Below are positions 9,543 to 49,964 of a stretch of 64,000 nt of DNA, piece by piece. How positions within the stretch are numbered: the first letter of the stretch is position 1; each line of letters opens with the position of its first letter. The notes beneath the pieces are model-generated. The model made no database searches and had not been told where the DNA came from. It saw only the letters and a program-made list of their open reading frames with translations. A program made the position numbers and the translations under genes. This DNA is from a virus (Duplodnaviria > Caudoviricetes), in the IMG/VR virus record IMGVR_UViG_3300040811_001959; one strand, 5' to 3'.

Positions 9543-9550
9543 AAAAATTT

Positions 9551-10123: not shown

Positions 10124-10131
10124 TTTGCCTC

Positions 10132-10386: not shown

Positions 10387-10387
10387 C

Positions 10388-10768: not shown

Positions 10769-10787
10769 ATAACCTAAAGTTATTTAT

Positions 10788-12116: not shown

Positions 12117-12170
12117 GTAAATATTTATTCACATGTTATATTGGAAATCTAAGTGTTTTATAGAATAGAC

Positions 12171-31841: not shown

Positions 31842-32771
31842 TTACACAAAGAGGCTACTAATAGATTCCTCATTAGTTACACGTCGGATAGCTTCTCCAA
31901 ACAAATTAGCTACACTTACTTGTCTTACCCTACAACCATCTTCACAGTGATCTGCAATCGTATCAGTAATCACTAGCTCAGTTAAAACGCTCTCTCTTAC
32001 TCTAATACAGGCACTGCGACTTAATACACCATGTGTAATGTAGGCCTTTACATCAATTGCACCTGCATCCATAATGGCTTTTGCAGCATTGCATAATGTA
32101 CCTCCACTGTCTACGATATCATCTACTAGGATAGCATGCCGGCCTTCCACATCACCAATTAAATGCATTACTTCACTCTTACCAGCCGCAGGTCTACGCT
32201 TGTCAACAATAGCAATGTTACCATGGAAAGCGTCTGCAAATTTACGAGCACGGACAGCACCGCCTGCGTCTGGACTTACAAACACATACTCACTACTGTC
32301 TTTTTGATGTTCCTTGATATCTCTTGCAAAGATAATCCTACTGGTAAGATCGTCAACAGGAATATCAAAAAACCCTTGTATCTGTCCTGCATGTAAATCC
32401 ATAGTCAGTACACGATCAGCACCTGCTGTAGTAAGTAGGTCAGCAACTAGCTTTGCTGTAATGGGTGTGCGGCTGGCACTCTTGCGGTCTTGTCTAGCAT
32501 ATCCGAAATATGGAATGACTGCTGTAATGCGTTGTGCAGAACTACGTTTAGCCGCATCAATCATAACCATGAGTTCCATTAGGTTATCGTTGACCGGAGT
32601 ACTTGTTGATTGGATTATAAAAACATCTTCTCCTCGGATATTTTCTAAGAATTCTACAGAAGTTTCTCCGTCTGAAAACCTGTCAATCTTAGCCGGTACA
32701 AGTGTACTAAAACTATGCTCTGCAATTGCGTTTGCAAGAGGCTGATTTGAATTTCCTGCGATTAGTTTCAT
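31842..32771 (-). CDS. prs: Ribose-phosphate pyrophosphokinase
   Basis: RFSDGET, PYFGYARQDRK, DLHAGQIQGFF, VSPDAGG, ILVDDIVDSGGTL. Confidence 0.98.
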   Translation of the reverse strand: MKLIAGNSNQPLANAIAEHSFSTLVPAKIDRFSDGETSVEFLENIRGEDVFIIQSTSTPVNDNLMELMVMIDAAKRSSAQRITAVIPYFGYARQDRKSASRTPITAKLVADLLTTAGADRVLTMDLHAGQIQGFFDIPVDDLTSRIIFARDIKEHQKDSSEYVFVSPDAGGAVRARKFADAFHGNIAIVDKRRPAAGKSEVMHLIGDVEGRHAILVDDIVDSGGTLCNAAKAIMDAGAIDVKAYITHGVLSRSACIRVRESVLTELVITDTIADHCEDGCRVRQVSVANLFGEAIRRVTNEESISSLFV

Positions 32772-34812: not shown

Positions 34813-35007
34813 TTAAATCTTCAAATATATATCTAATAGAATTGCAAAAAATATTTGTACAAAGAAAAGTATAAAAAGTGTACTGAGAAATTTTCTTGTA
34901 GCACATCCTTTACACACGTCTTTAATCAATCTAATATCGTCTTTTAATTTATCGTACAAAGGCGGCATTAGCTTATTATCACACCATGTGATGATAAAAT
35001 AATCCAA
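34813..35007 (-). CDS. Small membrane protein (start uncertain)
   Basis: C-terminal hydrophobic segment. Confidence 0.35.
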   Translation of the reverse strand: MDYFIITWCDNKLMPPLYDKLKDDIRLIKDVCKGCATRKFLSTLFILFFVQIFFAILLDIYLKI

Positions 35008-35432
35008 GTTTGATTTGTATATAACAAACTTACCGTATCTCCTACCGCATTAAAAGCGATATTAGTTGCTCCAGCAAAAGTTGCTGTTAAATTAACTGTA
35101 TTGTTCTGATAGTTCGTCATAGTGATTACTTTGTATTGACCGTTACTTCCATTTGCCAATGTTACTGTCAATTCACCTGAAGTAGATCCAGTTAGATGTG
35201 TAACGGTTTGAGTAATTGAGCAATCGGCTTTACTATCGCCTGCAGAATCAACTCCGTCGTTAAATGCGATAAAAGATTTAATATTTTTAAAAATATCTTG
35301 CACTGCAATATTAGTAGTCATCCTATTAATATTTCCTTCGCCGTCGTCATCTCGGGCCACGAGCACTAATAAATCATCAGCAGTAAGATTTGGACCTCTG
35401 TAGGGTAGTTCTGAAATTTTTTTATCTGCCAT
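34968..35432 (-). CDS. Probable virion protein
   Basis: MADKKISELP N-terminus typical of fibre-type proteins; beta-rich. Confidence 0.55.
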   Translation of the reverse strand: MADKKISELPYRGPNLTADDLLVLVARDDDGEGNINRMTTNIAVQDIFKNIKSFIAFNDGVDSAGDSKADCSITQTVTHLTGSTSGELTVTLANGSNGQYKVITMTNYQNNTVNLTATFAGATNIAFNAVGDTVSLLYTNQTWIILSSHGVIIS

Positions 35433-35613
35433 ATTTTACCTATAATGTTTCAATAAAATTTTCATCGTGCTGATGGGGTAAGCCTTTTGCACAAAAATCG
35501 CAATGATTAGAAACTGTATTATTTCTCTTAATATTACGAGCTTTTTTTATTTTCTTTTCTCTAAGTTTTTGTTTTTGCATTTTTTTCTTTGTCATTCTTT
35601 TCCTTTATTGTAT

Positions 35614-36339
35614 TTATTTAGGAGTATAGATAACGCCATTAATCATGTACTTAGAATCATACCAATCAAAGTCAGTGCTTGCATGAAGTAATGAACACGG
35701 AAATAAATGAATAGCTCCTATTTCCCATTCGCCTAATGTATCTACTTCAAGGCCATACAACTGCTCAGGTGAAATATGAGATATATGTGGATATTTAGGT
35801 AAAAAATTGCTTATCGGTTTTTTTAAATTATTTTTTAAGGATACTAAATGGGTAATACTTACAGATTTTAATTTTCCTGCAGGTCCTTCAGGAATCTCTA
35901 CTTTAAAATCAAATTTTGATTCTCTGCGATAAAATCGATTGTCTGGCATTAATTTATCAAAATAACATGTAGGTGATGCATTAGTCAAAGGTATTAGAAA
36001 TCTACATATTGGATTATGAATTTTTCTAAAACCACCATCACTGTCGCTATGGACACTATGAGTTGCTGCACCTAAATGTTGTAAGCTTGCATATAAGACA
36101 AGGTTAAAATTAGGAATATCAAATTTTTTTAATAATTTTTGGAAAATATTTTTAAAATTGAAATTGAAACTAAGTTGGTCAAATTCTATTTTATTTACTA
36201 ATTTATTATTATTGTCTGCCAAAGGAGGATAATGATTTTCTGTAAATAAATTTTTTGTTACTTTGGCAGGACAATAGGTAGCACAAAAATTTTCTAAATC
36301 TATTTTCTGAAAATCAGTAATGATTACACGGTTTAACAT
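35614..36339 (-). CDS. Jelly-roll/2OG-oxygenase-like protein
   Basis: SVHSD...LIPL...HLFPCSLLHAS. Confidence 0.45.
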   Translation of the reverse strand: MLNRVIITDFQKIDLENFCATYCPAKVTKNLFTENHYPPLADNNNKLVNKIEFDQLSFNFNFKNIFQKLLKKFDIPNFNLVLYASLQHLGAATHSVHSDSDGGFRKIHNPICRFLIPLTNASPTCYFDKLMPDNRFYRRESKFDFKVEIPEGPAGKLKSVSITHLVSLKNNLKKPISNFLPKYPHISHISPEQLYGLEVDTLGEWEIGAIHLFPCSLLHASTDFDWYDSKYMINGVIYTPK

Positions 36340-37471
36340 AATCTATACCATATAAACTACCTACCAAACTTATGAAGTCTTGTTTTCGGTGTTGTTTAAT
36401 TAAATTGTAATAATCAAAAATTTTTTGTTTCATTTCAAGACTATTTTCATCTGCAAGAGCATTTTTTACAATAGGAAACCAACGTGCCTCAATTATATTT
36501 TTAATATCATTTAATATTAAAAATTTTAGGTGTTCTTGCAAAATTCCAGGGTTACTATAGCCTTTACTTGTAGAACTTTCATGTGTTGCTACATTGATAC
36601 AATAAGGATAATTATATTTTTTACAATATATTAAAAAATGTTTTAAACCTATTGCACTAAAACTGCTCAAGGTAAAATTTAGTGTAAATTTAAATTTATT
36701 TCTTTGTAAAGCAGCAAAATCATTTATTTTTTTTATATTTCTATCAACAATACACCATTTTGCTGGAAACCTTACAAATTCAAATACCTCATCTATTCCA
36801 TCAACACTAATAACAAAATTTACAGATTTAAATTTAATCATATTATTTAAATGATAATCTTTTATAAAAGTTCCATTTGAAACTAATTGTAAATTAACAT
36901 TTTTTAGGCAATCTGCATCAAAATTATCAAGATAACTCCAAAACTTTTTTGCTAGCATTGGCTCACCACCATACAATTCTAAAGTTTTATTTGATGTAGG
37001 ATTAGTTTTGATAAATTTTGTTAAAATGGCTTCTATTTCTTCTTTTTTAAAATAATTGGTTTTGCTTTTTTGTAAATTACGCATCAACGAAAATGACTGA
37101 ACATCTTCATTCCATTTTGTTGAATAATCTGGGCTGCACATGATACATTTTAAATTACAGATATTGCTTAATTTTATTTGTAGATGAGTTGGAAATTCAG
37201 TTGCTTCTTTATAAAATTTATTAGTAGTTATCTCATTTAGCCTTTTTGATTGTCCTATTTTTTTGTCTCTATTATAACACAACGTACAATCTTCTATTGG
37301 TATATTATCCAAGTTTTTTTTCCTAATAGCATCTAATGTATCAGCTTTCCAAAAATCTAAAAAATTATGATTAGGATAATTATACTGTTTGCTACTAACA
37401 CAGCATAATTTAAAATTATTTGGATTTAATTCAACTGAATAAAATGGAACAGGACAATAAGTTTTATTCAT
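36314..37471 (-). CDS. Radical SAM enzyme with N-terminal Cys cluster
   Basis: CNLKCIMC, YGGEPML, SNGT, SVDG; N-terminal YCPVPF...KLCC...CTLC. Confidence 0.9.
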   Translation of the reverse strand: MNKTYCPVPFYSVELNPNNFKLCCVSSKQYNYPNHNFLDFWKADTLDAIRKKNLDNIPIEDCTLCYNRDKKIGQSKRLNEITTNKFYKEATEFPTHLQIKLSNICNLKCIMCSPDYSTKWNEDVQSFSLMRNLQKSKTNYFKKEEIEAILTKFIKTNPTSNKTLELYGGEPMLAKKFWSYLDNFDADCLKNVNLQLVSNGTFIKDYHLNNMIKFKSVNFVISVDGIDEVFEFVRFPAKWCIVDRNIKKINDFAALQRNKFKFTLNFTLSSFSAIGLKHFLIYCKKYNYPYCINVATHESSTSKGYSNPGILQEHLKFLILNDIKNIIEARWFPIVKNALADENSLEMKQKIFDYYNLIKQHRKQDFISLVGSLYGIDYVKPCNHY

Positions 37472-38255
37472 CTAACTTACCACAAATTAAAAATCTAAAT
37501 ACATATTTTGAAGTAATCTTTGAATATCCTTGGGTACAATGTGCCTGATAAGGATTAAAAGTAACTAAATCTCCTAACTGCATTTGATAAATGTTTTCAA
37601 TATGTAATCCTGTCTCCATACCAGGAATGGCCAAAATATGATTCCAGCTATCGTCATCTCCTATCCAAGGATCGGTATTTTTTGGTAATGCATTAAAAAA
37701 TTTATCAAAAAAATCAAAATTATCATAATTGGTTTTTCCATAGAAATCTTCTTGAAATTCTACTCCGCCATAACTATATTCGTAATGTTCTTTGAAAGTT
37801 ATTAAAGTTGAAGAGATTGTGTCTGTTGATAATTCTTCTGTATCAAATGCTAATGGTATTACGCCTATTTTTAAAACACAAAATTCTCTTTCATCATTTG
37901 GATAAAAAGGAAAATGACCATCAATGTGAGGTCTTGTAGGTTCTGGAATAAAACAAACATTACAATTATCAATATGTATTGTTAATGGAAATTTATAATA
38001 ATCTAGTAATTTTTTCTTTAAATTTTCTATTAACTTTTGATTATTGTACAATCTTAATGTAGGAAATCTTCCTTTGATATCATTTTCACAATTTTTTGGC
38101 ATTGTTTGCCATATTTCGAGTAATTCTTTTGAAGAAAGAAAAGATTTTTGAAAAATATTAATTTTATTAGAATATTCTAGTAGGTATTTCTTATGTAAGT
38201 TAATATCATTTTTGCTGATATTGTGTTTTTGGGACCATTGATTGATTTTTTCCAT
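37464..38255 (-). CDS. 2OG-Fe(II) oxygenase-like protein
   Basis: RPHIDG...GVIPL...FNPYQAHCT. Confidence 0.5.
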   Translation of the reverse strand: MEKINQWSQKHNISKNDINLHKKYLLEYSNKINIFQKSFLSSKELLEIWQTMPKNCENDIKGRFPTLRLYNNQKLIENLKKKLLDYYKFPLTIHIDNCNVCFIPEPTRPHIDGHFPFYPNDEREFCVLKIGVIPLAFDTEELSTDTISSTLITFKEHYEYSYGGVEFQEDFYGKTNYDNFDFFDKFFNALPKNTDPWIGDDDSWNHILAIPGMETGLHIENIYQMQLGDLVTFNPYQAHCTQGYSKITSKYVFRFLICGKLDE

Positions 38256-39117
38256 TTAAAATACCTTTAAGAATTTTAATTACTTTGATTGGATCAATCT
38301 CTACAAATTCTACTGTATCAGATTGAAAATTATGATGCAACAAATGCCCTATTTGGGTAGGATTTGTTATTGTACTCCATAAAACTACACCAGGCGTAGG
38401 CGATATTTTGTTGCAAGCCATATGCTGTATACAACTATCTATAGATATAAATGAGCTGCAATTATTTACTAACTCTTGAATTGTTAATAAAGGTTCATCT
38501 TCAACCGTGCAAATTCTATCCAACGTGTCAATTCTTGGATCATACTTATCGTTTTTTACCTTTACACACATAAAAAAATAATCTGGAAAAGCATCATGGA
38601 TAGCTTTAATAAAATCATATTCTTTTCTATAATTTCTAAATACCATTATATCATGTCTATCCTCTCCGTTATTAGTATTTCCGCCTTTTAATTGAAATAT
38701 GATATACTTTTTTCCTATTTTTTTTGTAACCTGTTCATAAAATGTACGGGCTGTTTCATCTGTGTAAATTTCTACAAAATCTTGATAGTTTTCAATATCT
38801 AAATTCAAACCTTTTCTCCAACTAGTCAATATATGCTCATCTTCAAATAAGTAATCAGATCTGTAAGGTTCAAAATAAGTTATACTGGTAAAATAATTCT
38901 TCATTACCGTAACATTTGGCAAGGCCATACTTAGAGAAGATGCAACAAGTGGATGATTTATAAATAAATTAGGGTATGGTGAACTAATAGAAATTTTTGA
39001 TTCATGACGATTATAGAGATCTTTTATTAAATTGCTAAACAAAACACACTTGCCTACACCATTCTGTATCATGTACAAAGGTGTTTTATTTTCAGGAAAT
39101 ATTTGTGGAATAATCAT
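38206..39117 (-). CDS. Glycosyltransferase family 9-like protein
   Basis: NGVGKCVLFS, YIIFQLKGG, FISIDSCIQHMA...GVVLW. Confidence 0.65.
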   Translation of the reverse strand: MIIPQIFPENKTPLYMIQNGVGKCVLFSNLIKDLYNRHESKISISSPYPNLFINHPLVASSLSMALPNVTVMKNYFTSITYFEPYRSDYLFEDEHILTSWRKGLNLDIENYQDFVEIYTDETARTFYEQVTKKIGKKYIIFQLKGGNTNNGEDRHDIMVFRNYRKEYDFIKAIHDAFPDYFFMCVKVKNDKYDPRIDTLDRICTVEDEPLLTIQELVNNCSSFISIDSCIQHMACNKISPTPGVVLWSTITNPTQIGHLLHHNFQSDTVEFVEIDPIKVIKILKGILNGKNQSMVPKTQYQQK

Positions 39118-39119
39118 AA

Positions 39120-39761
39120 CTATCTAAATTTTGGACCTCCGTACCAGCAAATAAAAGCTCTGCGTGTACCAGCTGTTATTTTATTCACTTTATGGATTGC
39201 AAATGTTGGAAATAAAAGCACACTACCTTGAAGCTTTACATTGTTCGGTTGTGCAATATTTAAATGTTCTTCTACAATGGTCTCACCTCCATCATAATCT
39301 TCTTCGTTTGATAACTGAATTATAAAAGTTAATTTTCTATCATGATGATGATTATCCCAATGATTTGTATCATCGTGTGTATCAAACCAATCATCAATAT
39401 CATATTGCATCAATTGTTTAGATAAGCAGCCATAACTTATATCTAGATGAAAACAATCTCTGTTAGCCATTAAAGCAATTTTATCTAATTTTGCATCTAA
39501 CCAATCAATCTCATTTTCCAAGAACATGTGTTTCCTAGACCTTTTTTCTCTAAAATATTTATACCACGGACTTTCTTCGTTATTTACTATTTCTATGAAA
39601 ACATCTTCATTTTTCCAATATGACCAAATTTTATCACATTCTTCTTTTGTAAAAATATTTTCTTTAAAATAGTAAGGTTGTCTACTACCGTTTGAATCAG
39701 AAAAAACTCTTTGCTTTGTTTCTTTTGAAGCTTTTGCTATGTCATTAGGTTCATATATCAT
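39120..39761 (-). CDS. 2OG-Fe(II) oxygenase (prolyl-hydroxylase/PKHD type), intact triad
   Basis: THDD...RKLT...YDGGE...FPTFAIHKV...GTR...GGPKFR. Confidence 0.88.
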   Translation of the reverse strand: MIYEPNDIAKASKETKQRVFSDSNGSRQPYYFKENIFTKEECDKIWSYWKNEDVFIEIVNNEESPWYKYFREKRSRKHMFLENEIDWLDAKLDKIALMANRDCFHLDISYGCLSKQLMQYDIDDWFDTHDDTNHWDNHHHDRKLTFIIQLSNEEDYDGGETIVEEHLNIAQPNNVKLQGSVLLFPTFAIHKVNKITAGTRRAFICWYGGPKFR

Positions 39762-40384
39762 CTAAATTTTGGTCCAATAATATGAGAGATTAATATATAC
39801 TTCGTTCCTTTTGTAATAGGAGCAATCTTGTAAAAATAATAAGCAGGTAATATACATAAAGATCCCTGTGAAAGAAATTTTTGCGGAATAGGAACTGTGC
39901 TATGAAATTCAACAATTTCACCTCCTACAATATCTTCGTCATTTAAAAATAATAAAAGACTCAACTTATTATCGTAAGGTTTTTCATTGTTCCACCACTC
40001 GCAATCATGGTGCCAATTTATAAACTGGTCTTTTTCAAATTTACACAGATATAGGTTTTCTACATTCATAAGATCTAGCATAAAATTTTTATTGGCATCT
40101 GCGCCAACTTCGTTGAAAATTTTTTCTAAAAATTTATAATCTTCTGGGAAAAAATTTTTCTTTAGTGAGATAGAAAAGAAATTACCAAAATCGTTATTGA
40201 TATGATTATATCCGCCTTTTTCAAATTTGGTTATTATCTCTTTACAAGCGTTTTCACTAAAAAGTTTTTCATAAATTACAAATGGAGATTTTTTGTAATT
40301 TATAGGAGAATAATCAGTTACCTTGCCAAATATAGGAGGGTAAGGCGATCCTGGTTCTCTTGCATCTTGAATATTTACACCCAT
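39758..40384 (-). CDS. 2OG-Fe(II) oxygenase paralog, distal His replaced
   Basis: WHHD...NKLS...GGE...LPAYYFYKIAPITKGTK...IGPKFR. Confidence 0.75.
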   Translation of the reverse strand: MGVNIQDAREPGSPYPPIFGKVTDYSPINYKKSPFVIYEKLFSENACKEIITKFEKGGYNHINNDFGNFFSISLKKNFFPEDYKFLEKIFNEVGADANKNFMLDLMNVENLYLCKFEKDQFINWHHDCEWWNNEKPYDNKLSLLLFLNDEDIVGGEIVEFHSTVPIPQKFLSQGSLCILPAYYFYKIAPITKGTKYILISHIIGPKFR

Positions 40385-41718
40385 GACGGTCTCCGTATAT
40401 CTCCTTGAATATCAACAACTTTTTTTCCTGTTAATAGTTTTATAGCTCCAAACATAATTCCTAAATTATAGGCATACTCATTCCAGCAAGTTTGAGCAAA
40501 CTCTTTTCCAGTAAGAAACATACAGGACCCTTTGCATAATTGTAAAACAGGACAATGTGTACATTCGTTTCTCCAGGACCAATGCCTGCTAGATTTAATT
40601 CTAACGGCATCAAAATTGTCAAGATGACCAGCAAGGTGTTTGTTTTCCAAACCTACATTTTGGCATGTGAGTACATTACCTTTTAAATCTAGAGCTAGTT
40701 CATCGTCTTGATCCATTCCACATTTTTGCCCAAGAAACTCTGCATCTTTTTTATATAATAAAGAACCATACCATTCGTTAATTTTTTCTACAATACCTAC
40801 AACTTGTAATAATGGTTGCTTACCTTCTACTATCCCGTTGTATATTTTTTCTCTAAAATCATAAACATACTTTTGATCAAATTTTCCAGTTTTATCATTT
40901 AGTGCAGTTTTTAAATCGTAGGCTTCGACAACTCCTTCACAATTAATATTAACATCGGTTCCAAATTTATCTCTAAACCATTTTACAGTTTGATCGTAAT
41001 CATCATTTTCTTTTGTCCAAACAATTGAAAAAGCAAACCCAAGTTCTTGTTTTTTATCAGCTTCTATTAATTGTTTTACAAATTCAAACTTTTTAGGATT
41101 ATCTAATGGATCAGGCCCTCTAAGATGATATCCGGGTCCGTCATGTGACATTGCTAAATTAAATCTATATTTTTTAAAAAAATCAATTTTTTCTTGTGTT
41201 AACAAACTTCCATTTGTAACCATCGTAAATTCAATATCTTCATCACATTTTTCTTTTAAAAAAGGTACTAATTTTTTTATTTTTTTCCAATAAAGTAGCG
41301 GCTCGCCGCCCCAAAGTTCCACCATTGTACAAGATGATAAATCAATACTATTTTCTAAATTATGCATAAAAACATCTGTATCATTTTCATCTGTACGAGA
41401 TGCAGCAGGAACAAAAGATGCTTGACTACAATATTCACATTTATAATTACATTTTAATCCCAACTGAATTTTAATTCTACTTGGGTTTTTTAATTTTTTT
41501 CCAGGATTAAAAAAAGGATGAATAGGATTTACATTAGTTTGATGAGGATAATCTTTAGGACTATATACATACATTTCATTGATTTTTTCAATACCGATTG
41601 GATTTTTTTCATATAAATTTTGACCGTCGGCATTAGTAAGTAAACTTTTATATGGATAATAAAAAAATTCTTCCCCGTCGTCGCAAATTAGTGTATAAAC
41701 AAGATTTTTATTTTTCAT
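40375..41718 (-). CDS. Radical SAM/SPASM-domain enzyme
   Basis: CNYKCEYC, WGGEPL, TNGS, SHDG; KCGM...TCQ...CTHCPVLQLCKGSC SPASM-type cysteines. Confidence 0.92.
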   Translation of the reverse strand: MKNKNLVYTLICDDGEEFFYYPYKSLLTNADGQNLYEKNPIGIEKINEMYVYSPKDYPHQTNVNPIHPFFNPGKKLKNPSRIKIQLGLKCNYKCEYCSQASFVPAASRTDENDTDVFMHNLENSIDLSSCTMVELWGGEPLLYWKKIKKLVPFLKEKCDEDIEFTMVTNGSLLTQEKIDFFKKYRFNLAMSHDGPGYHLRGPDPLDNPKKFEFVKQLIEADKKQELGFAFSIVWTKENDDYDQTVKWFRDKFGTDVNINCEGVVEAYDLKTALNDKTGKFDQKYVYDFREKIYNGIVEGKQPLLQVVGIVEKINEWYGSLLYKKDAEFLGQKCGMDQDDELALDLKGNVLTCQNVGLENKHLAGHLDNFDAVRIKSSRHWSWRNECTHCPVLQLCKGSCMFLTGKEFAQTCWNEYAYNLGIMFGAIKLLTGKKVVDIQGDIRRPSWV

Positions 41719-41850
41719 TCTATAATCCTATAAACGTAAGAAATTCGAGAATCAACTGAATATGCATGAGTGCATATAATTTTCTTTGTACTAGTTAATG
41801 TTGACTCGTACTCTCTATTGTTTTTTTGCGTAAAATTAATTTTACATTTT

Positions 41851-43500
41851 TTATATTTTAGAAGCAAGCTCATATTTTTGTTGATATAATTGAATTGTAA
41901 GACTATTTGATAACAATTGTTCTTTAAACTGCTGGAATAAATCTTTGGCAATTAGATAATTTTCTTCACTACAAAAATCTAATACATCATTGTTTTGTAA
42001 TAATTCTTTTCTTTTTTCAATATCATAAAGTTTATTATGAAAAACAGGAACCAAAAAATCATATTCATTAATAAAATTAAAAAGTTTATTTTCGGTATGG
42101 TAATAGACATGAAAAAAACGCCAGTAATTTATTTTAAAAGACATTGTTTCGTCTATTCCTGTTGTAATTTCAGTAGAATTTGGATTATATATATTTTTAC
42201 AATCTTTCCAAAAATTAGCAGAATTATTAGTCCAAGTATATAATAAAGACAAATCTGAAATTTCTTTAAAAAAATTAGAGTAAGTTTCATTAAATTCTAA
42301 AGTTTTCAACATCAATGTTTCTTCATCTATACTAAAACAATCATCTTCCGTGTCGTTATCGCTTTCAATTAAAATATTAATTAGCGATTCTATCTGTTTT
42401 ACAATTAGATTTAAGGGATCAATAAAAATAGGTTCAATAATCGATGAAGCATTACCTAACGCTATGCAATTTTTGTTAAGAATTTTATCTATTGATCCTA
42501 TGTTTAAATCTATAATTTGATATTTCTCAATTTTCAAATTAAGATGATTTTCTAACTCTGACAGCGCATCTTCGTCACTGATATAATTTTGTGCATAAAC
42601 ATAAGAATACCTTGTGCAGTTTTGTAATGGAATTTGATATACATAACCTGCTGATAAAGGATAAAAATCTTTCCAAATTTTTTCTAATGCAATATCACTT
42701 TCATATGAAATTACTTTATTCACTTTATGCGTAGGAAATAACCAAAAATTATAAAAAGAAAAATTTGTAACAACATCTCTATGAATTCCTGTGCAATCTA
42801 TAACAAAATCACAGTCATAAACATCATTTGTTCCTTTAACTTGGATAATAGTTTCGTCTTCTTCTTGAATTAGTTGTTGGTAATAATCGTCTATTACCTC
42901 AACATCTTGCTGTAAAGCTAATCTTTTAATATATGGCAATAGTTTTTCACTTGTGTAGGTGATTGCAATTGATCTGTCTTTATTGTCAAATAAATTCATT
43001 AAACTAGCAATATCTAAATCTGGAATTTTATCTTCGGTAAAAAATGATGTAATTTCTGAAAAATTAATTTTTTTTTCGTCATTTAATAGTCTATTAAGAT
43101 AGGATCGTTTCCATGTCTTATTAAACTTCTCGACTTCATCATTTGGATCTATTTCATCTTGATCAGCGTTGTCTTCAGTTTTTTCTGGCCAATGAATTTC
43201 ATCAATTTTCATAAAATTCATAGAATTACTATGTACAAAAATTTCGTCTGTAGTATTCCAATTATTATACCTTGACCCAAAGTTAATAACTCCTTGGGTT
43301 TCTTGGAATAAGTCTTTTATGTCTAAATATTCAATTAAGTTTTTTGTAAGGTATAAAGTTCCTTCTTGTATATCATTACCTTCAAGAATAGGCTGATTTA
43401 TAATTTTAATTTCAAGAAATGGTAATTGCGTTTTTAATATATAAGCGGTTAACCAACCTTCAAGACCTGATCCAACAATAATGATCTTTTTTAATCTCAT
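41851..43500 (-). CDS. Tryptophan-halogenase-fold flavoprotein, atypical
   Basis: IVGSGLEGWLTA, FVIDCTG, GYVYQIPLQN, ALGNASSIIEP. Confidence 0.72.
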   Translation of the reverse strand: MRLKKIIIVGSGLEGWLTAYILKTQLPFLEIKIINQPILEGNDIQEGTLYLTKNLIEYLDIKDLFQETQGVINFGSRYNNWNTTDEIFVHSNSMNFMKIDEIHWPEKTEDNADQDEIDPNDEVEKFNKTWKRSYLNRLLNDEKKINFSEITSFFTEDKIPDLDIASLMNLFDNKDRSIAITYTSEKLLPYIKRLALQQDVEVIDDYYQQLIQEEDETIIQVKGTNDVYDCDFVIDCTGIHRDVVTNFSFYNFWLFPTHKVNKVISYESDIALEKIWKDFYPLSAGYVYQIPLQNCTRYSYVYAQNYISDEDALSELENHLNLKIEKYQIIDLNIGSIDKILNKNCIALGNASSIIEPIFIDPLNLIVKQIESLINILIESDNDTEDDCFSIDEETLMLKTLEFNETYSNFFKEISDLSLLYTWTNNSANFWKDCKNIYNPNSTEITTGIDETMSFKINYWRFFHVYYHTENKLFNFINEYDFLVPVFHNKLYDIEKRKELLQNNDVLDFCSEENYLIAKDLFQQFKEQLLSNSLTIQLYQQKYELASKI

Positions 43501-44198
43501 GCTTCCTCAATTTTTTGTATTATATCGTTGATATCCTTCAATGAATGTGATATCGGTACGTTTGATAATTTATTATGTAGATTCAAATTATTTTTCTTTA
43601 TATCAGTATTATCATTTTTTAAAAGTCTAGTCATATTAATTTTATTTCTTACCTTATTATAAAACATTACAAGGAAAATAGGATAGTATGTCATATTTTT
43701 ACAAAAAAAAGCTTCTTGCTGGAAAAATAAAAAATCACCAGGATTAACAACACATTTTGAAATATTTTTATTATCACTGGTATAATATATAGATTCTATA
43801 TTTAAAGGAACTAGACAAAAATTATCAGAATATTTTAAAAGTTTTGTTTTTCTAAACCTTTCCGGAGTAACTATATTTTTAATACCATTGTCAATATAAT
43901 CTAGACTTGTTGATAAATCAAGAAATTGGATATCTTCTAAATATATGTCAGTATTAATTTGCAAAATATTATTGTAAATGGTTCTAATGATATCAATTAT
44001 AGGATCAATACAAAAAATAATTGAATAACTATTTGTTTCTGTAATTTTTCTGACAATACCATTAGCAAGTAGTCGCACGTCATCTAATTCCTGTTGAATT
44101 CTATGTTTATTAAAATCATGAACTGACCTTATTATATCAAAAAAATATTTAAGACGTGTTACATCTTTTTTAGATAACAATTGTTTTTCATATAGCAT
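43497..44198 (-). CDS. Hypothetical protein, possible degenerate jelly-roll
   Basis: 233-aa ORF in cluster; LVPL...PGDFLFF. Confidence 0.45.
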   Translation of the reverse strand: MLYEKQLLSKKDVTRLKYFFDIIRSVHDFNKHRIQQELDDVRLLANGIVRKITETNSYSIIFCIDPIIDIIRTIYNNILQINTDIYLEDIQFLDLSTSLDYIDNGIKNIVTPERFRKTKLLKYSDNFCLVPLNIESIYYTSDNKNISKCVVNPGDFLFFQQEAFFCKNMTYYPIFLVMFYNKVRNKINMTRLLKNDNTDIKKNNLNLHNKLSNVPISHSLKDINDIIQKIEEA

Positions 44199-45855
44199 TA
44201 TTACTTGCCCTTAATCGTTTGAATGGAACATGTTCTATATAAGTTTCAAAGTATTCTCCATTTTTTGATGTAATTTGTCCTACATTACCATAGTTCGGAG
44301 TCTCTAAAATTAATAAATTTAAAAATTCATCAAAAGTAAAATAGCCATTAAAGTAAAAATTTTCTTTTACATTAATTTCAAGATATAATGCTAACCTATC
44401 AAACACGTTGCTGCTTGAAAAATCAAAATCAAATGCAGTAATGTTACCAAGTTGAGCTGCTAAAATTATATAATCAATTACACTATTTGGGTCTTTGTCG
44501 TAGGAATTGCCAAAAGTAATTTCATTATTAAAATCTGTACTAAAACTAGGTACTTTATCATTAAAATTAGTTTTTAATGTATCTGGTGTATTATTAAAAA
44601 TTCCATAACCTTGCAAATTGTTATCCTGCAATAAATAAAAACTAAATTTCTTAAGATTTTTGTTAAAATTTTCCCATTTATGTTGAAGTGAATCAATGTA
44701 TTGATATAAATTTGCTGGATCGATTATGGAAGAATTAATCGTTGATACAATTGTATCTATATAAATATTAGCTGCCACTAACTCTTCGTTAAATATAGGA
44801 TTCAAACCTAATTTTTCTAAATTAAATTCTATATAATTAGAATGATTTAGATCATTAATTAAAAAATTATTTTGAAGTGTATTAATATTATTGACATTAT
44901 TGCTAAATGATATTTTTTTTGCATAATCTTGATATTTTAAAATTTTAACAAATTTATTATCTAAAAGCTGGTTATTATAGATTGCTGGTTCAAGAAAATC
45001 AATTTGTTCATCTTCATAACCAGAAAAAATTATTGTAGGATTTGTAGTAGTAAGTTCTTTATCACTTTCTATAAAATTATTAAAAAATAGATTATTTATA
45101 CCTGTATTAATCACCAAATCTACATTAAAAGATTGACTACTAGTCGTAATTTGTGTTATATTTTTTTTATTTTTTCCATCTAATACTGGTAGGATTTCAG
45201 TTGATCCATCTACTATATTATCAGTTATAATGTCTAACCCTAATTCTGATATTTTGTTATCTAGAAGAAGAGCAAGATTATCTAAATCATAACATCCTGG
45301 CATTCTAAACCATAAAGGACCTGCAGATCCTTCGGTTAGAAATTTGCCGGTGAGATGATATAAATTATCATTATTTTTATATAAATCATATGGAAAGATT
45401 GTAAGCACATCAAGGATATTTTTATTTTTTTGTAGTAGATATTCTATAAAAGCTTGATATTTTCTTTCTGTTGAATCAAATTTTAAAAAATCATATTTTG
45501 TACAATAATAGTTTAATAAACTAAATTGTAACTGTGTCATCCTAGCTGGTAATATTATCTCATTTTCTATTATACCTTCAAAAGAAATTCCATGCCCGAC
45601 TGTGCTCTTTGTTTGTGTAAAAATCTCTGCAACGCTTATATTACAATGTTTAAAAAACAACGAAGGAAAGGAATATTGTTCAGCTACAGGTAGATATTGA
45701 TTTGAAATTATTTGTGTTCTGAAACTTTCATTATTAGTAAATAATATTGGATTACTTTGCGGATTATTTATCTTCAAGGATAATGCAATCACCTTTGCAG
45801 CAAATGTATTTCCTAATACTGCAATATTTTTTATTGCCATTTTGATCCTATACAA
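44188..45855 (-). CDS. Highly degenerate halogenase-fold protein
   Basis: IAVLGNTFAAKVIA, STVGHGISF, DLVINTG; same length class as its neighbour. Confidence 0.5.
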   Translation of the reverse strand: MYRIKMAIKNIAVLGNTFAAKVIALSLKINNPQSNPILFTNNESFRTQIISNQYLPVAEQYSFPSLFFKHCNISVAEIFTQTKSTVGHGISFEGIIENEIILPARMTQLQFSLLNYYCTKYDFLKFDSTERKYQAFIEYLLQKNKNILDVLTIFPYDLYKNNDNLYHLTGKFLTEGSAGPLWFRMPGCYDLDNLALLLDNKISELGLDIITDNIVDGSTEILPVLDGKNKKNITQITTSSQSFNVDLVINTGINNLFFNNFIESDKELTTTNPTIIFSGYEDEQIDFLEPAIYNNQLLDNKFVKILKYQDYAKKISFSNNVNNINTLQNNFLINDLNHSNYIEFNLEKLGLNPIFNEELVAANIYIDTIVSTINSSIIDPANLYQYIDSLQHKWENFNKNLKKFSFYLLQDNNLQGYGIFNNTPDTLKTNFNDKVPSFSTDFNNEITFGNSYDKDPNSVIDYIILAAQLGNITAFDFDFSSSNVFDRLALYLEINVKENFYFNGYFTFDEFLNLLILETPNYGNVGQITSKNGEYFETYIEHVPFKRLRASNNAI

Positions 45856-46379
45856 AATGCAAACAAGTATTTTAATTGTGGTACAGAAACAGTATCAATT
45901 ATATATTTTTGAAAGCTGTTAAATACTACAATGGCACCAGTTTTTTGATAAAAAATCTTATCAATCTCACTTTGACTTCCATTAGGTGCGATTAGTTTAA
46001 TTTTTCCACCAGCAATATCTGGATCAAAAGGAGGATTTAAATTTATGATAGCTACAAGTTTTCTATCATAATAATTCTGCACCCAATGGTTTAATTCCAT
46101 TCGTTCTGAAAATGATCCGTCTTTTGAATATGATTCTAATCTAATTGCATCGATGCTATTAATTGAATAACCAAAATTATTATTATTTGCTTTTTGGAAA
46201 TAATAATAAATTGCATCTTCTATATCAGAAATGTAACCACCACCGTACCATTTGACATCTACATTTTTACCTTTACCACTAGATAGATTACTTTTAACTT
46301 GTAAATTTTCAATAATATTTAGAAATTCTGGTACTACATTTTCAACAGCACCAGGAAAGGTTATATGATCGTAAAGCAT
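45831..46379 (-). CDS. 2OG-oxygenase paralog lacking Fe ligands
   Basis: RKLVAIINL...GG...IVVFNSFQKYIID...IGSKWQ. Confidence 0.6.
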   Translation of the reverse strand: MLYDHITFPGAVENVVPEFLNIIENLQVKSNLSSGKGKNVDVKWYGGGYISDIEDAIYYYFQKANNNNFGYSINSIDAIRLESYSKDGSFSERMELNHWVQNYYDRKLVAIINLNPPFDPDIAGGKIKLIAPNGSQSEIDKIFYQKTGAIVVFNSFQKYIIDTVSVPQLKYLFAFCIGSKWQ

Positions 46380-46384
46380 AATAT

Positions 46385-46972
46385 TTATTTCAATTTAGGA
46401 CCTACAATATCGAATGTAAGAACTTGCATAGCTCCTTGTAATAATGGATTTATTTTTATAGGTACAAAAGATGGATAAATTAACAAATTACCTTGCTCAT
46501 TATAATATTTAGGTAGTGATATGCCATATAAAGGGTCTACTAAGAATTGCCCACCTTCATATTTTTGTTTATCACTTAGAAAAACATAACCAGTTAGTTT
46601 TTGGTCACAGGACTCATTTGAAAAAAAATCTAATCTTGAATGGTATCCGTACTCACAACCTTGCTGGAAGGTTATTAATCTTGGATCGTTTTCAAATCCC
46701 CAAATTTCATATCCATAATTTCTAGTATTGCAATCAAAAATATATTTTAATATTTTTTCTTCTAAATGCAGTTGATTTTCAATTGTGTAAGACTCAAAGT
46801 TTTGTTTAGGTGTTCTCGGATTTGTAACTGGATTGGGTTCTATGTTGACAATATCATTGTCGATTTGCAATTCGCAAATTTCAGCGCATTCGTCGCTATA
46901 GAATATTTTAGGATATATAGTAAAACATTCTTTTTTAAGAAGAGAAGAATAGTCATATTCCATTATATTCAT
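46385..46972 (-). CDS. 2OG-oxygenase paralog with degenerate triad
   Basis: YGYHSRLD...QKLT...YEGG...IYPSFVPIKINP...VGPKLK. Confidence 0.65.
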   Translation of the reverse strand: MNIMEYDYSSLLKKECFTIYPKIFYSDECAEICELQIDNDIVNIEPNPVTNPRTPKQNFESYTIENQLHLEEKILKYIFDCNTRNYGYEIWGFENDPRLITFQQGCEYGYHSRLDFFSNESCDQKLTGYVFLSDKQKYEGGQFLVDPLYGISLPKYYNEQGNLLIYPSFVPIKINPLLQGAMQVLTFDIVGPKLK

Positions 46973-46987
46973 TATAACTCTTTATGT

Positions 46988-47695
46988 TTATAGGTTTTCT
47001 ATTTTTTCTAATAAAATCGGAATTTGTTCAATGTAAATTAAACCCTTTAATTTATTTCCGTCTTTTTCTAGAATATTTATTAGGTCTGGTAAAATATTTT
47101 CTGCCTCTTGAGCAAATTGATCTAGCAAAACTTTTTCATCGTCAGTAATATCATTGTCATTTTCTATCAAACTTTCAATATCAAGCCCTTTATCTATATA
47201 ATCTATTATAATCTCTTGTAAAGATTTTAATTTTTCTACGCTAAGTTGATCTATAATAAATCCATCGGAGTCTTTTCCTAAATTAAATGAACATTTACAT
47301 TTACCACACCAACATTTACAAGCACATTTGCATTTACATTGGCACTTGCATGCACATTTGCATTTACATTGGCACTTGCATGCACAAAGGCACTTGCACT
47401 TACACTTGCACTTGCATTTGCATTTGCACTGGCACTTGCATTTGCAATTGCAGTTGGTTGTATATTCTATCCTTAGTGTACCTTCTGATCCTGCTACATT
47501 ATTCCGTATTTGATAAATTTTGTTAATAGCAGCGCCGGTAAATGGACCATTGCTAGGAGTTGGAACTAGAGACACTCCATTTAATAACCAACTTGGACTC
47601 ACAAAAGAAGCAGGAATAGTTGTAGGATCTACATTACTAATATCAATTTTATCTGCCGGATCACCTACAACGGTATTTCCAATTTTTAATGCCAT
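46988..47695 (-). CDS. Protein with central alternating Cys-Xaa tract; candidate radical SAM substrate
   Basis: Residues 82-135 contain 27 Cys; acidic C-terminal domain; GAGG SD and TAAATA box upstream. Confidence 0.8.
   Translation of the reverse strand: MALKIGNTVVGDPADKIDISNVDPTTIPASFVSPSWLLNGVSLVPTPSNGPFTGAAINKIYQIRNNVAGSEGTLRIEYTTNCNCKCKCQCKCKCKCKCKCKCLCACKCQCKCKCACKCQCKCKCACKCWCGKCKCSFNLGKDSDGFIIDQLSVEKLKSLQEIIIDYIDKGLDIESLIENDNDITDDEKVLLDQFAQEAENILPDLINILEKDGNKLKGLIYIEQIPILLEKIENL
47291..47452 (-). repeat. Cys-Xaa codon repeat including a 30-bp tandem duplication (47322-47386)
   Basis: TGY-NNN periodicity; CACKCQCKCK unit duplicated exactly. Confidence 0.95.
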
Positions 47696-47729
47696 TATAA
47701 CCTCTGTTTGAATTATTTATCTTTATGAT

Positions 47730-48326
47730 TTATGAGACCGTGATATAACTATTCACTGGATAGCTACATTGACAAGAATCCTCGACAGTAGTATCGTCGT
47801 AATAAGCTCCACTTCCACGATTATATGAACATACCATAGCACAATAGTAATTTGCAGTACCTATACAACAGCAAACTAAACAATTATTAACTATTGCAAA
47901 ACAAATTTGATTTGTGTATCCGCCTAATGTCCATCTGACGCCGGCTGTAACATCAAAGCATGTAAGGGTTCCTTGTGTAGCAGGTATATTACTACTGGGT
48001 TGCACATATGATCCGTAAGACGTAGTATTTGCACACATAAAAAAATCGCTGCCTTTACCAACATAAACATTAGTCACTGTATCAGCCCATGAGTCAAAAT
48101 CTCCACAAAAAATATCTAACAAAGTATATGTTCCTTGTGGATTTGAAAAAAAAGTTAAATCAGTTTCGGGATCTAATCCTAACACCCGTTGGCATGCCGC
48201 AATGCTTGGATTACAAACTATCAATTGTCCTGTTGTATGTTGCTTTCCTGGTGCTTGTGCGTTCCTTTCCGCTTGGGTGAGTCCTGCTTCTAAAATTATT
48301 ATCTTATCTCTAATTCTAAATGCCAA
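47730..48326 (-). CDS. Cys-rich virion-type protein
   Basis: MAFRIRDKII N-terminus; 14 Cys including VCCC. Confidence 0.55.
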   Translation of the reverse strand: MAFRIRDKIIILEAGLTQAERNAQAPGKQHTTGQLIVCNPSIAACQRVLGLDPETDLTFFSNPQGTYTLLDIFCGDFDSWADTVTNVYVGKGSDFFMCANTTSYGSYVQPSSNIPATQGTLTCFDVTAGVRWTLGGYTNQICFAIVNNCLVCCCIGTANYYCAMVCSYNRGSGAYYDDTTVEDSCQCSYPVNSYITVS

Positions 48327-48327
48327 T

Positions 48328-48771
48328 TTAATCTCCTATATAAACATACTTCACACTAGAATCTCCGTTGTAGTCACAAAATTTAATTAAATTTGCACAG
48401 CCTACCATATATGAATCATATACACACCTACTATAGTAATAAGGATTTTGGACAGTATTATAATATGGTGGTCCTGTGTGTTTAGGAGTCCGGGTATCAC
48501 AATACCTATGGCTATTTGCAACAGAAGAATGCGACCCTAATAAGAACGCTCTCCTGGATAGTCCGCATTTATCAATCGCAGTTCCTGTTGTGCTCCTAGT
48601 CCCTGAGGCTAAATAGGCAATAACTTTTGGACAGCGTAACCATACTTGATTATCGGTAAATGATGTGTTAGAATTCATTCCTTGCCCATACGGAACAATG
48701 GTATCTTTAAAATCTATTGATGTTGTTAAACCTACTGCATCTACAAGGACGCCGTTAATATAAAAAGCCAT
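48328..48771 (-). CDS. Small virion-type protein
   Basis: MAFYINGVLV N-terminus; 6 Cys. Confidence 0.55.
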   Translation of the reverse strand: MAFYINGVLVDAVGLTTSIDFKDTIVPYGQGMNSNTSFTDNQVWLRCPKVIAYLASGTRSTTGTAIDKCGLSRRAFLLGSHSSVANSHRYCDTRTPKHTGPPYYNTVQNPYYYSRCVYDSYMVGCANLIKFCDYNGDSSVKYVYIGD

Positions 48772-49964
48772 TATGGTATTACCTTAAGTTTCAAACTACC
48801 AACATTTGAAAATGATTTAAAGCCAATTTTGATTTCTACATCGTCACCTACTTCTAAATCAAGCGCTCTATATAAAAATCTACCCCTACCGTTTTTTACA
48901 TTACATTTACGTTTACTCAAATAGCCTGCATTGGCCGAAACGTAAAAGTCAATATCTTTTTGAATTATATAGTGATCTGAAATTGTACCTTCTTTATCGC
49001 TTAAATTAGTAGGTGTTAAAATTTTAAGATCAGTCGTATTTAGATCCTCCAAGCAAAGTTTACTATCTATATGTTCATATGTAATTTTATCAGCATCTTC
49101 CGTAAGCAGAACTTCTTCATTATCATATAGACTTACATTGACTAAAATGACATCATCTTTAGATATTTCAAGAGGAGCGTGTAATTGAATTTTAGGTAAA
49201 GGAAGCTCTGCATAACTAGTAAGTAAAGGAAAAACATAAGCAAAGTTTGCCCCGCCGATTTCATTTGTACCTAATTTAAAATCAAAATGAAATTCTCCGT
49301 GACATCTAACGTAATAACTACATTCTGTAAAATCATCGTCTTTATCTAGTATGAAAATAGAAAAAAGTCTTTTCCTAAATTCGCCGCTAGTCCAGAAAGA
49401 TGCGCCCTCTGGTGTTGTCCTTATTAATTTTGGAGCTGTTACATAAGAACTATTAAGTTCATGCCTAACAAAAGGCGACTTTGTTATTACAGAATCAAAT
49501 AGGATATTTTTAGGATAAAACCAATTCATACCGTCAAAATTAAAATCAAACGCCCATAAGGCGCAATCGGACCATTCAACAAAAGTATTTTTATCAAATC
49601 CAACATTTTTATCAAACCCTCTATCATAGGTTGTTGTTCTTGTCAGTATTGAAATGTTACCATCTTGATCAAAAGCTCTGCGAATTTGTGCTCCGCCAAA
49701 ATACCTAAAATATTTTGACTGCACTGATGGTTCATAGAAAATTGAACCAGAAACCACCGACTCTAAGAAATTTGCATCCATATCAATATTATGATCTTGT
49801 AAGAACGAAACTCCATCTTTATTATCTATGAATAGTATGTTTTCTGGCAATTCATCATAGATTTCTTCATGAAAGGCTTTAATTGTAATTGTATTGGTAT
49901 CTACTTCTATTTTAAGAAATAAATTATCTAATAAATCATTTGTGGCCCTAAAATATTGTCGCAT
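48771..49964 (-). CDS. Hypothetical protein with C-terminal Ig-like domain
   Basis: AGYLSKRKCNVKNGRGRFLYRALDLEVGDDVEIKIGF. Confidence 0.55.
   Translation of the reverse strand: MRQYFRATNDLLDNLFLKIEVDTNTITIKAFHEEIYDELPENILFIDNKDGVSFLQDHNIDMDANFLESVVSGSIFYEPSVQSKYFRYFGGAQIRRAFDQDGNISILTRTTTYDRGFDKNVGFDKNTFVEWSDCALWAFDFNFDGMNWFYPKNILFDSVITKSPFVRHELNSSYVTAPKLIRTTPEGASFWTSGEFRKRLFSIFILDKDDDFTECSYYVRCHGEFHFDFKLGTNEIGGANFAYVFPLLTSYAELPLPKIQLHAPLEISKDDVILVNVSLYDNEEVLLTEDADKITYEHIDSKLCLEDLNTTDLKILTPTNLSDKEGTISDHYIIQKDIDFYVSANAGYLSKRKCNVKNGRGRFLYRALDLEVGDDVEIKIGFKSFSNVGSLKLKVIP

Follow-up and report, generated by a model that had tools for sequence, protein, structure and literature searches.

Within a 64,000-nucleotide stretch of viral DNA (the window; IMG/VR record IMGVR_UViG_3300040811_001959, Caudoviricetes), positions 35614-49964 and their surroundings encode a protein with a long tract of alternating cysteines (the Cys-X tract) together with a radical S-adenosylmethionine (SAM) enzyme of the SPASM type. 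Comparison across relatives of this enzyme strongly supports the conclusion that the SPASM enzyme and the Cys-X tract are a conserved pair across phages. The region is probably a tail-fiber accessory cassette, in which a Cys-X fiber-type protein is combined with enzymes that would modify its tract after translation. Modification of the tract by the SPASM enzyme itself appears very likely; a ladder of thioethers as the product, argued by analogy, is a tentative proposal to which we give somewhat less than an even chance. The source record is 117.6 kb long and about half complete. The NrdA encoded in the window (19260-21560) is ~71% identical to NrdA of Synechococcus T4-like myoviruses, and near-identical DNA occurs in metagenomes of estuary, seawater, and salt marsh from more than 12 studies, which together point to an uncultured coastal (estuarine) T4-like cyanomyovirus. 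The features at the center of the argument are as follows:

40375-41718, minus strand: radical SAM/SPASM enzyme, 447 amino acids (aa), with Pfam Radical_SAM and Fer4_12 matches, a CX3CX2C motif, and a seven-Cys SPASM pattern
46988-47695, minus strand: Cys-X repeat protein, 235 aa, with an N-domain (residues 1-81, MALKIGNTVV start), the tract (82-135), and a C-domain (136-235)
47291-47452, minus strand: the Cys-X tract, 54 residues with 27 Cys and 17 Lys, the proposed modification site
48771-49964, minus strand: multidomain beta-sandwich (immunoglobulin [Ig]-like) protein, 397 aa (fam2), a conserved partner of the radical SAM family

For the family search, patterns made from the enzyme alone were run against IMG/VR and one genome per prokaryote species, yielding at least 588 loci in viruses and 129 in genomes (prophages). 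We examined 160 loci, of which 101 were left after collapse at 90% enzyme identity. A preliminary description of the window, made from its letters alone, had pointed to co-occurrence of the enzyme with (CX)n open reading frames (ORFs) and with homologs of the Ig-like protein. Both associations proved positive: a co-oriented (CX)≥3 ORF lay within 5 kb of the enzyme in 81 of the 101 nonredundant loci, so that SPASM homologs do not routinely occur without one, and homologs of 48771-49964 were present in 58. The density of (CX)≥3 ORFs per 10 kb was 1.22 near the enzyme, compared with 0.07 beyond 5 kb (~17-fold) and 0.32 antisense, and the pattern N-C-x-C-x-C was seen on the sense strand in 73 of the 101 loci and on the antisense strand in 5. 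With clustering at 70% identity, the association was retained in 40 of 55 clusters, and at 50% it was retained in 11 of 15. When all neighbors of the 101 enzymes were clustered to find conserved partners, the recurrent families besides the enzyme were fiber/Cys-X proteins (69 loci), the 48771-49964 homologs already mentioned, and PF13759 2-oxoglutarate (2OG) oxygenases (56 loci); a role for 2OG oxygenases as the recurrent third partner of the SPASM/Cys-X pair is thus supported across family loci.

The motif itself has a characteristic form and position. Among 77 distinct motifs, Asn precedes the first Cys in 57, the spacers are most often Asn (41%), Ala (17%), and Asp (15%), and the motif ends no more than three residues from the C terminus in 50, usually as an N-C-N-C-x-C tail. 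Motifs that are not terminal precede a Hint domain (JWF gp028 and a Burkholderia paludis prophage), a Peptidase_S74 (S74) domain (the cyanophage clade), or a "C-S-K-I-I-C" module that carries a hydrophobic tail. Judging from these arrangements, the Cys-X run in each architecture is, or could become, a free C-terminal end. The carriers are either tail fibers or fiber-tip proteins of ~80 aa with an MA-x-K-I-G start. Long carriers (300 to 600 aa) have collagen triple-helix repeats and strong PHROG tail-fiber matches, and the tail-fiber block of two cultured phages, Achromobacter phage JWF and Ralstonia phage RSP15, includes the enzyme gene (gp030 and ORF045, respectively). Because the carriers are tail-fiber or fiber-tip proteins and not leader-peptide precursors, a virion target is far likelier than a secreted product, as the preliminary description had proposed.

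Several loci of the family deserve separate mention. In JWF gp028 (L026:5712-7163) and the Burkholderia paludis MSh1 prophage (L143), the run N-C-N-C-D-C-N-C-N-C-S-C stands directly before the Hint domain (C-F-P-A-G-T), and Hint cleavage would expose the run as the C terminus. A fourth motif architecture is found in ~300-aa Cys-rich proteins encoded just downstream of the radical SAM gene (L009:7849-8793 and relatives in L087, L101, L108, and others), which read ...N-C-N-C-A-C-N-C-S-K-I-I-C-x-K-L before a hydrophobic C-terminal part. Beside the radical SAM and Cys-X genes of L009, positions 8795-12443 encode a PF13759 oxygenase, two oxygenase-like proteins, a fatty-acid-desaturase-like membrane protein, and an Asp/Asn beta-hydroxylase (PF05118), a set that hints at hydroxylation of the Asn/Asp spacers. 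Another phage contig (L017:1075-12409; IMGVR_UViG_3300008453_004667) has about seven radical SAM genes in 12 kb and, at 5775-6383, a 202-aa protein with the start MALGKMF that ends in four copies of C-T-C-N-C-N-Y; by its sequence, it has the appearance of a second variant on the Cys-tail theme, and a richer one. In Ralstonia phage RP12 (L194, ORF074-ORF080), three radical SAM genes lie beside a Cys-free protein of 126 aa with a His/Tyr-rich end (...H-T-H-Y-S-P-D-G-S-Y), and this locus may be a related system with another target residue.

In the window, the pair forms part of a single block. Region 35614-49964 holds 17 co-oriented minus-strand ORFs, starting at the stop codon of the long tail-fiber gene. 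Most of the genes overlap or are spaced by 1 to 35 nucleotides (nt), the only larger gaps being one of 132 nt that precedes the SPASM gene and one of 181 nt at the lower end, and the G+C content is 25 to 31%, compared with 34 to 39% in the flanks. Compared with the nearest relative, IMGVR_UViG_3300025653_000164, DNA identity is 93 to 100% on both sides and 60 to 79% within ~35,600-47,500, a divergent span extending from the last enzyme gene as far as the repeat in the Cys-X gene. At the protein level, the fiber, the 397-aa protein, and the 154-aa protein downstream are 94 to 99% identical, the enzymes 39 to 78%, and the Cys-X protein 56%. Since the drop in identity is confined to ~35.6-47.5 kb, the tract, the C-domain, and all of the enzymes are passed on and swapped as a single unit. 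At least four divergent contigs, all with 25 to 29 Cys, keep this gene order, and synteny of this extent is more than would be expected by chance.

Structural genes stand on either side of the block. The upstream neighbor is the following:

49964-55168, minus strand: long tail fiber, 1734 aa, ending in a Peptidase_S74 intramolecular-chaperone domain, with PHROG tail-type matches; context of the cassette

Pfam places PF13884 on the last 178 aa of this fiber (E 6e-11), and the fiber is 97% identical in the nearest relative. Directly below the cassette, 34968-35432 encodes a 154-aa protein with a fiber-type start (M-A-D-K-K-I-S-E-L-P) that is 98.7% identical in the nearest relative, so that conserved structural genes bracket the cassette on both sides. 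Further out, 31842-32771 resembles, by its sequence, a ribose-phosphate pyrophosphokinase (phosphoribosyl pyrophosphate synthetase); this gene and that for NrdA are ordinary cyanophage auxiliary/nucleotide genes outside the cassette. The T4-type late promoter word TATAAATA was not enriched in the window. Exact contigs of 241 to 245 nt in two metatranscriptome libraries (estuary and seawater) match 41720-41964 and 42840-43080, which is a weak sign of transcription and not proof of it. An apparent peak of read depth on the Cys-X tract reflects cross-matching of the repeat, and the antisense (plus-strand) ORFs at 47287-47711, with H-L or C-I/T-Y repeats, are not genes but arise from the TGC-AAR repeat.

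The enzyme at 40375-41718 has the motifs expected of a complete radical SAM/SPASM protein, and their conservation in alignments confirms what had been read from the window alone. The Pfam Radical_SAM match has an E value of 1.8e-13. Within CX3CX2C, C90 and C94 are invariant in both family alignments (10 and 31 members), and C97 shows no variation in one of them and is conserved to at least 90% in the other. The SPASM pattern of two auxiliary clusters, C..G-x4-C .. C-x2-C-x5-C-x3-C .. C, is present, with C333, G347, C352, C386, C389, C395, C399, and C411 invariant or nearly so; Pfam at E<0.01 gave no separate SPASM match and listed the C-terminal part as Fer4_12 only. NCBIfam gave PapB as the best match, with HxsB, CcpM, QhpD, DynA, the sulfatase maturase, and the SCIFF maturase also near the top, and the solved structures related to the enzyme include those of TvgB and CteB; the best relatives, by family or by structure, are maturases of peptides or proteins. 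The scores were 67.8 bits for the PapB-type ranthipeptide maturase model NF047865 (cutoff, 340), 53.9 for the anaerobic sulfatase maturase TIGR03942 (cutoff, 349.45), and 58 for the QhpD model TIGR03906 (cutoff, 453). As it lies far below all family cutoffs, the enzyme represents a family of its own. The Cys-X protein had no NCBIfam match. The homolog in phage JWF is annotated as an anaerobic sulfatase-maturating enzyme, and the search that gave this homolog returned no cyanophage record among the SPASM-enzyme matches.

In the Cys-X protein, the tract comprises 25 consecutive Cys-X dipeptides followed by a one-residue slip (G-K) and two further Cys. Its spacers are Lys (17), Gln (3), Ala (3), and one each of Asn, Leu, Trp, and Gly, and its codons are mixed (TGC/TGT and AAA/AAG) within a repeat unit of 30 nt. 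Relatives were found in IMG/VR, JGI metagenomes, and a protein collection, all with 25 to 29 Cys and with Lys as the main spacer. Two orthologs carry a Pfam Peptidase_S74 domain (L003, 2.4e-13, from residue 159; L004, 2.1e-11) that begins at a Ser directly after the tract (...C-W / S-D-x-x-L-K), and the proteins of the window and of L001 align over their full length with these S74-bearing orthologs. As judged from sequence comparison, C-domain 136-235 is probably derived from an S74 intramolecular chaperone and has drifted below Pfam detection. Self-cleavage of this domain is plausible for the ortholog family and uncertain for the copy in the window.

Two further small proteins lie between the Cys-X protein and the Ig-like protein:

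47730-48326, minus strand: small protein, 198 aa, with a TTG start reading (M)AFRIRD and 14 Cys including CLVCCC; putative fiber-tip subunit
48328-48771, minus strand: small protein, 147 aa, with a MAFYING start and 6 Cys; putative fiber-tip subunit

Variable counterparts of 48328-48771 occupy the same position in L003 and L004, and its N-terminal motif is common to small Cys-tailed proteins of other phages. The 198-aa protein may be a second substrate. Its TTG start lies one base after the upstream stop, behind GGAG, and 12 residues from its end it has a C-Q-C that resembles the N-C-Q-C-G-N end of the RSP15 side fiber. Short carriers elsewhere (60 to 90 aa) start with MAYKVGTTIV, MTYKIGGTTV, or MAFKINGTTV, and in the window the same motif is seen in MALKIGNTVV, MAFYINGV, and (M)AFRIRDK, with MAVIGNKIV in the long fiber. 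Since it is common to the window proteins and the short carriers of other phages, the MA(L/F)xI start is a family signature, and the MA-x-K-I-G form is probably a docking element. As for the Ig-like protein, a hidden Markov model (HMM) built from neighbors of radical SAM homologs matches it at E 1.8e-33. Its AlphaFold model (predicted local distance difference test [pLDDT], 75) consists mostly of beta strands arranged as a chain of beta-sandwich domains, and Foldseek matched it to Ig-like adhesin and glycoside hydrolase family 2 (GH2) domains; the template modeling (TM) scores are low (~0.2) for the 397-aa model because only single Ig-like domains match.

The remaining genes of the run encode mainly proteins of enzyme folds:

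35614-36339, minus strand: 2OG-oxygenase-fold protein, 241 aa, with candidate ligands (Atlas); last gene of the divergent cassette
36314-37471, minus strand: radical SAM protein with an N-terminal Twitch domain, 385 aa (NCBIfam NF033640, N_Twi_rSAM; Pfam Radical_SAM)
37464-38255, minus strand: 2OG-oxygenase-fold protein (TauD/DUF6445-like), 263 aa, with a candidate HxD...H (Atlas)
38206-39117, minus strand: GT9-like (GT-B fold) glycosyltransferase-like protein, 303 aa (Atlas features, 0.98)
39120-39761, minus strand: 2OG-Fe(II) oxygenase, 213 aa (PF13640, prolyl/lysyl-hydroxylase type, 1.2e-11; phrog_61, 3e-23)
39758-40384, minus strand: 2OG-oxygenase paralog, 208 aa, with the distal His replaced (phrog_61, 9e-13)
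41851-43500, minus strand: flavin-dependent halogenase family protein, 549 aa (Pfam Trp_halogenase, 7e-42, 144 bits against a cutoff of 21)
43497-44198, minus strand: protein of unknown fold, 233 aa, with homologs in L001 and L189, only nearest relatives
44188-45855, minus strand: halogenase-fold protein, 555 aa, whose low-confidence model (pLDDT, 59) matches only flavin-dependent tryptophan halogenases
45831-46379, minus strand: 2OG-oxygenase paralog, 182 aa, without metal ligands (tblastn similarity to paralogs)
46385-46972, minus strand: 2OG-oxygenase paralog, 195 aa, without HxD...H (phrog_61, 8e-4; tblastn similarity to the 39120 type)

All of the items listed in the preliminary description were found in the sequence at the coordinates it gave. 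The run is co-oriented, tightly packed, and mostly overlapping, and it follows the long tail fiber directly; the three small proteins with MA(L/F)xI starts, one of them with 27 alternating Cys, are present; and the Ig-like partner is borne out by the predicted beta-sandwich domains. The second radical SAM enzyme matches NF033640 over its full length and above the cutoff (203.7 bits against 170). The GT9-like enzyme was recovered by Atlas features and by structure (TM 0.81 to viral GT9 clusters in the Atlas), with no Pfam match. Up to six 2OG-oxygenase-like proteins had been claimed, and six of that fold were found; the ligands are intact in one, 39120-39761, which has the HxD...H iron ligands and the Arg. 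Two halogenase-fold proteins were also found, the second by the low-confidence model only.

The first of these, 41851-43500, has the flavin motif GSGLEG, reads YVYQIP at WxWxIP, and in alignment with its best solved relative, VirX1 (E 1e-15), shows a Lys near the expected catalytic place that is shifted by one residue. The second, 44188-45855, had no Pfam match (model matches, E 4e-9 and TM 0.43 to 0.48) and is probably not flavin binding, as its dinucleotide motif reads GNTFAA instead of GxGxxG. BLASTP between the two was not significant, and the link between them is drawn from the low-confidence model. Because expected cofactor residues are missing in four of the six 2OG-fold proteins, the three paralogs included, and in one halogenase-fold protein, these may be noncatalytic. 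Family-library scans gave no matches for 43497-44198, and HMM searches and hhalign found no link between the unassigned proteins of the window and the PF13759-type oxygenases of other loci.

Taken together, these observations suggest how such a cassette could work. The cassette genes would be expressed together with the fiber genes, as their co-orientation and overlapping frames imply. The SPASM enzyme may recognize the conserved strand-plus-N-C-N-C junction and then work along the repeat, and its most probable reaction, by analogy with the nearest characterized SPASM enzymes, would join a Cys sulfur to a carbon of a neighboring residue as a thioether. In known radical SAM beta- and gamma-thioethers, Cys is linked to a carbon of an Asn, Asp, or Thr that lies a few residues from it (PMC8326336). 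The N/D-rich spacers of the wider family would fit this chemistry, and the Lys spacers of the cyanophage clade have no obvious fit. The 2OG oxygenases could hydroxylate the spacers, Asn/Asp in most phages and Lys in the window, and the GT9-like protein may add a sugar. The chaperone-derived C-domain, found as an S74 domain in the orthologs, would trimerize the protein and, in orthologs with an intact Ser-Lys site, may cut itself off and leave the modified tract as a free tip, while the MA-x-K-I-G motif would dock the protein on the fiber apparatus. The end product would be a stiff, chemically hardened, strongly cationic fiber tip for host contact.

It is also important to point out what weighs against this interpretation. 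Around 20% of family loci have no Cys-X ORF, and the phage RP12 homolog (27% identity) has a Cys-free partner, so the Cys-X association belongs to the closer family only. The spacers in the window are mostly Lys, which accounts for only 1 of 325 spacers elsewhere in the family and is not a known thioether acceptor. With all NCBIfam scores of the SPASM enzyme far below their cutoffs, the reaction type cannot be transferred from any of these models. PF13884 was not detected at E≤1 in the C-domain of the window's Cys-X protein, nor in that of L001. The halogenase-fold, GT9-like, and Twitch radical SAM genes recur, with rare exceptions, only in the cyanophage clade, and similar enzyme genes are common in cyanophage variable regions. 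We also list here a complex prediction for the enzyme and Cys-X residues 40-112, which scored 0.00 with a partner pLDDT below 50 and is in itself neither for nor against binding.

These points leave room for other explanations. One that we consider unlikely is that the tract is a metal-binding module (metallothionein-like, or an iron-sulfur needle in a trimeric fiber) that is not covalently modified, and that the radical SAM enzyme serves some other step of fiber maturation. Runs of C-x-C that contain Lys, Asn, or Asp are characteristic of metallothioneins, and a beta strand would put all thiols on one side. The carriers are trimeric fiber proteins, with collagen repeats or an S74 domain, and the tract length is held at 25 to 29 Cys. 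The tip of the T4 long tail fiber (gp37), with its His-x-His iron sites, likewise has an alternating repeat of ligand residues at the distal end of a trimeric fiber, although with His rather than Cys, and we know of no dedicated modifying enzymes for it. What a metal needle leaves unexplained is why the motif's most constant neighbor should be a maturase of the SPASM type, the relatives of which act on peptides that contain Cys, and why tract and enzymes are exchanged together. Metal binding and enzymatic modification of the tract are, in any case, not mutually exclusive.

Alternatively, the enzyme could carry out a different radical SAM chemistry on the tract, such as conversion of Cys to formylglycine followed by reaction with Lys amines, formation of carbon-carbon links, or epimerization. 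We regard this as rather improbable. The sulfatase-maturase annotation of the JWF homolog and the presence of TIGR03942 among the weak matches are consistent with it, the Lys spacers of the window could capture aldehydes, and TvgB, which among solved structures is nearest in sequence, forms carbon-carbon bonds on a repeat substrate. However, the cluster contains no sulfatase gene or C/S-x-P-x-R motif, TIGR03942 scores far below its cutoff, and the wider family favors Asn/Asp spacers, not Lys.

It is quite improbable, in our view, that the enzyme genes are an unrelated variable island for glycan or small-molecule metabolism that happens to adjoin the fiber genes, the Cys-X protein being an independent structural gene. 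The low G+C content would suit such an island; genes for halogenases, 2OG oxygenases, glycosyltransferases, and radical SAM enzymes are widespread in cyanophage variable regions that have no Cys-X gene; and the accessory enzymes are absent from most noncyanophage loci. Against this, the SPASM enzyme, the fam2 protein, and a 2OG oxygenase accompany the Cys-X tail across unrelated phages, every divergent cyanophage version preserves the order from tract to enzymes, and exchange involves the whole block. A conventional secreted natural-product cluster for a peptide that is ribosomally synthesized and then posttranslationally modified (RiPP), carried by a phage, is highly improbable: a radical SAM/SPASM enzyme beside a Cys-rich substrate recalls one and some partner proteins are only 60 to 90 aa, but family scans of the window proteins found no leader-peptide protease, transporter, or immunity genes, the motif also occurs on collagen-repeat fibers of 300 to 600 aa and before fiber-type self-cleaving domains, and the loci lie in tail modules.

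A fiber accessory cassette of the kind we favor would bring enzymology of a known kind to a class of targets for which the literature searched has no description. Full-text searches, with subscription journals not covered, found no description of radical SAM enzymes tied to tail fibers, virions, or Cys repeats of this kind. The nearest parallels are the ranthipeptide systems PapB/PapA (freyrasin), NxxcB/NxxcA, and CteB/CteA (SCIFF), in which a SPASM enzyme likewise acts on a repeated Cys motif and whose Asp, Asn, and Thr acceptors near Cys match the N/D-rich spacers of the wider phage family (PMC8326336). The phage repeat differs in having a period of 2, not 4 or 5, and, in the window, Lys spacers; moreover, the phage substrate is a fiber or fiber-tip protein, with no leader-peptide logic, protease, or exporter. 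The SPASM enzyme QhpD installs Cys thioethers inside QhpC, a subunit that stays in a complex (PMC8326336), and in this respect resembles the phage system, where the modified protein would remain part of a complex and not be a secreted peptide; the protein context is unrelated, however, and QhpC has no repeat tract. TvgB (PDB 8vpo), a cyclopropylglycine synthase, has the closest solved structure by sequence (E 9e-12) and is described as a radical SAM-SPASM enzyme acting on a repeat-motif precursor (PMC10878394), but its carbon-carbon bonds are made on Val with no Cys involved. The CXXX-repeat system (TIGR04114/TIGR04115) also has a Cys-repeat target beside a SPASM maturase, with a period of 4 rather than 2, and TIGR04115 was not among the 25 best of the 60 NCBIfam matches of our enzyme.

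Other components have relatives of their own. The Peptidase_S74 chaperone of endosialidases and phage fibers is found in Cys-X orthologs as well as in the long fiber of the window, the window's Cys-X copy being below Pfam detection. VirX1 (PDB 6qgm) is a cyanophage flavin-dependent halogenase of a family common in cyanophages; 41851-43500 is only ~21 to 25% identical to cultured-phage homologs, and it differs in the YVYQIP noted above, as does its second copy in lacking the flavin glycine motif. Two other groups of phage radical SAM enzymes, those for thymidine hypermodification (PMC8989533) and the "antibiotic synthesis" enzyme of cyanophage S-SCSM2R (PMC12801897), were set aside as belonging to a different context. 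When cultured phages were searched at the nucleotide and protein levels, neither the cluster nor the Cys-X protein nor the 397-aa protein gave a match. Within the set examined, the version in the window is the most extreme example, with 27 Cys (motifs elsewhere in the family reach 8 at most, and their median is 5), spacers of Lys, and some ten accessory genes of enzyme folds, of which several appear noncatalytic. It is further distinguished by its probable chaperone-domain ending and by its occurrence in a phage of an oxygenic phototroph.

In its broadest form, a proposal that we regard as evenly balanced between right and wrong, many tailed phages, from proteobacterial prophages to marine cyanophages, would enzymatically rebuild the distal end of their fibers, with a SPASM enzyme, 2OG oxygenases, and an Ig-like helper converting a Cys-X tail to a cross-linked (possibly hydroxylated, glycosylated, or metal-loaded) tip, which in the cyanophage version would be a rod of ~50 residues. 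If true, this would be the first case in which a host-recognition organelle of virions is known to be cross-linked by enzymes, and it would give RiPP-type enzymes a new class of substrates, proteins instead of peptides, large structural proteins included. It would also supply a role for some of the many marine cyanophage genes for 2OG oxygenases, halogenase-fold proteins, and radical SAM proteins that still lack an explanation. As the family comprises hundreds of loci, including those of the cultured phages JWF and RSP15, the question is directly testable. Fiber tips decide phage host range, and their shape is commonly attributed solely to sequence and folding chaperones; a maturation step by radical chemistry would, if true, add a new layer to fiber biology and to phage engineering.

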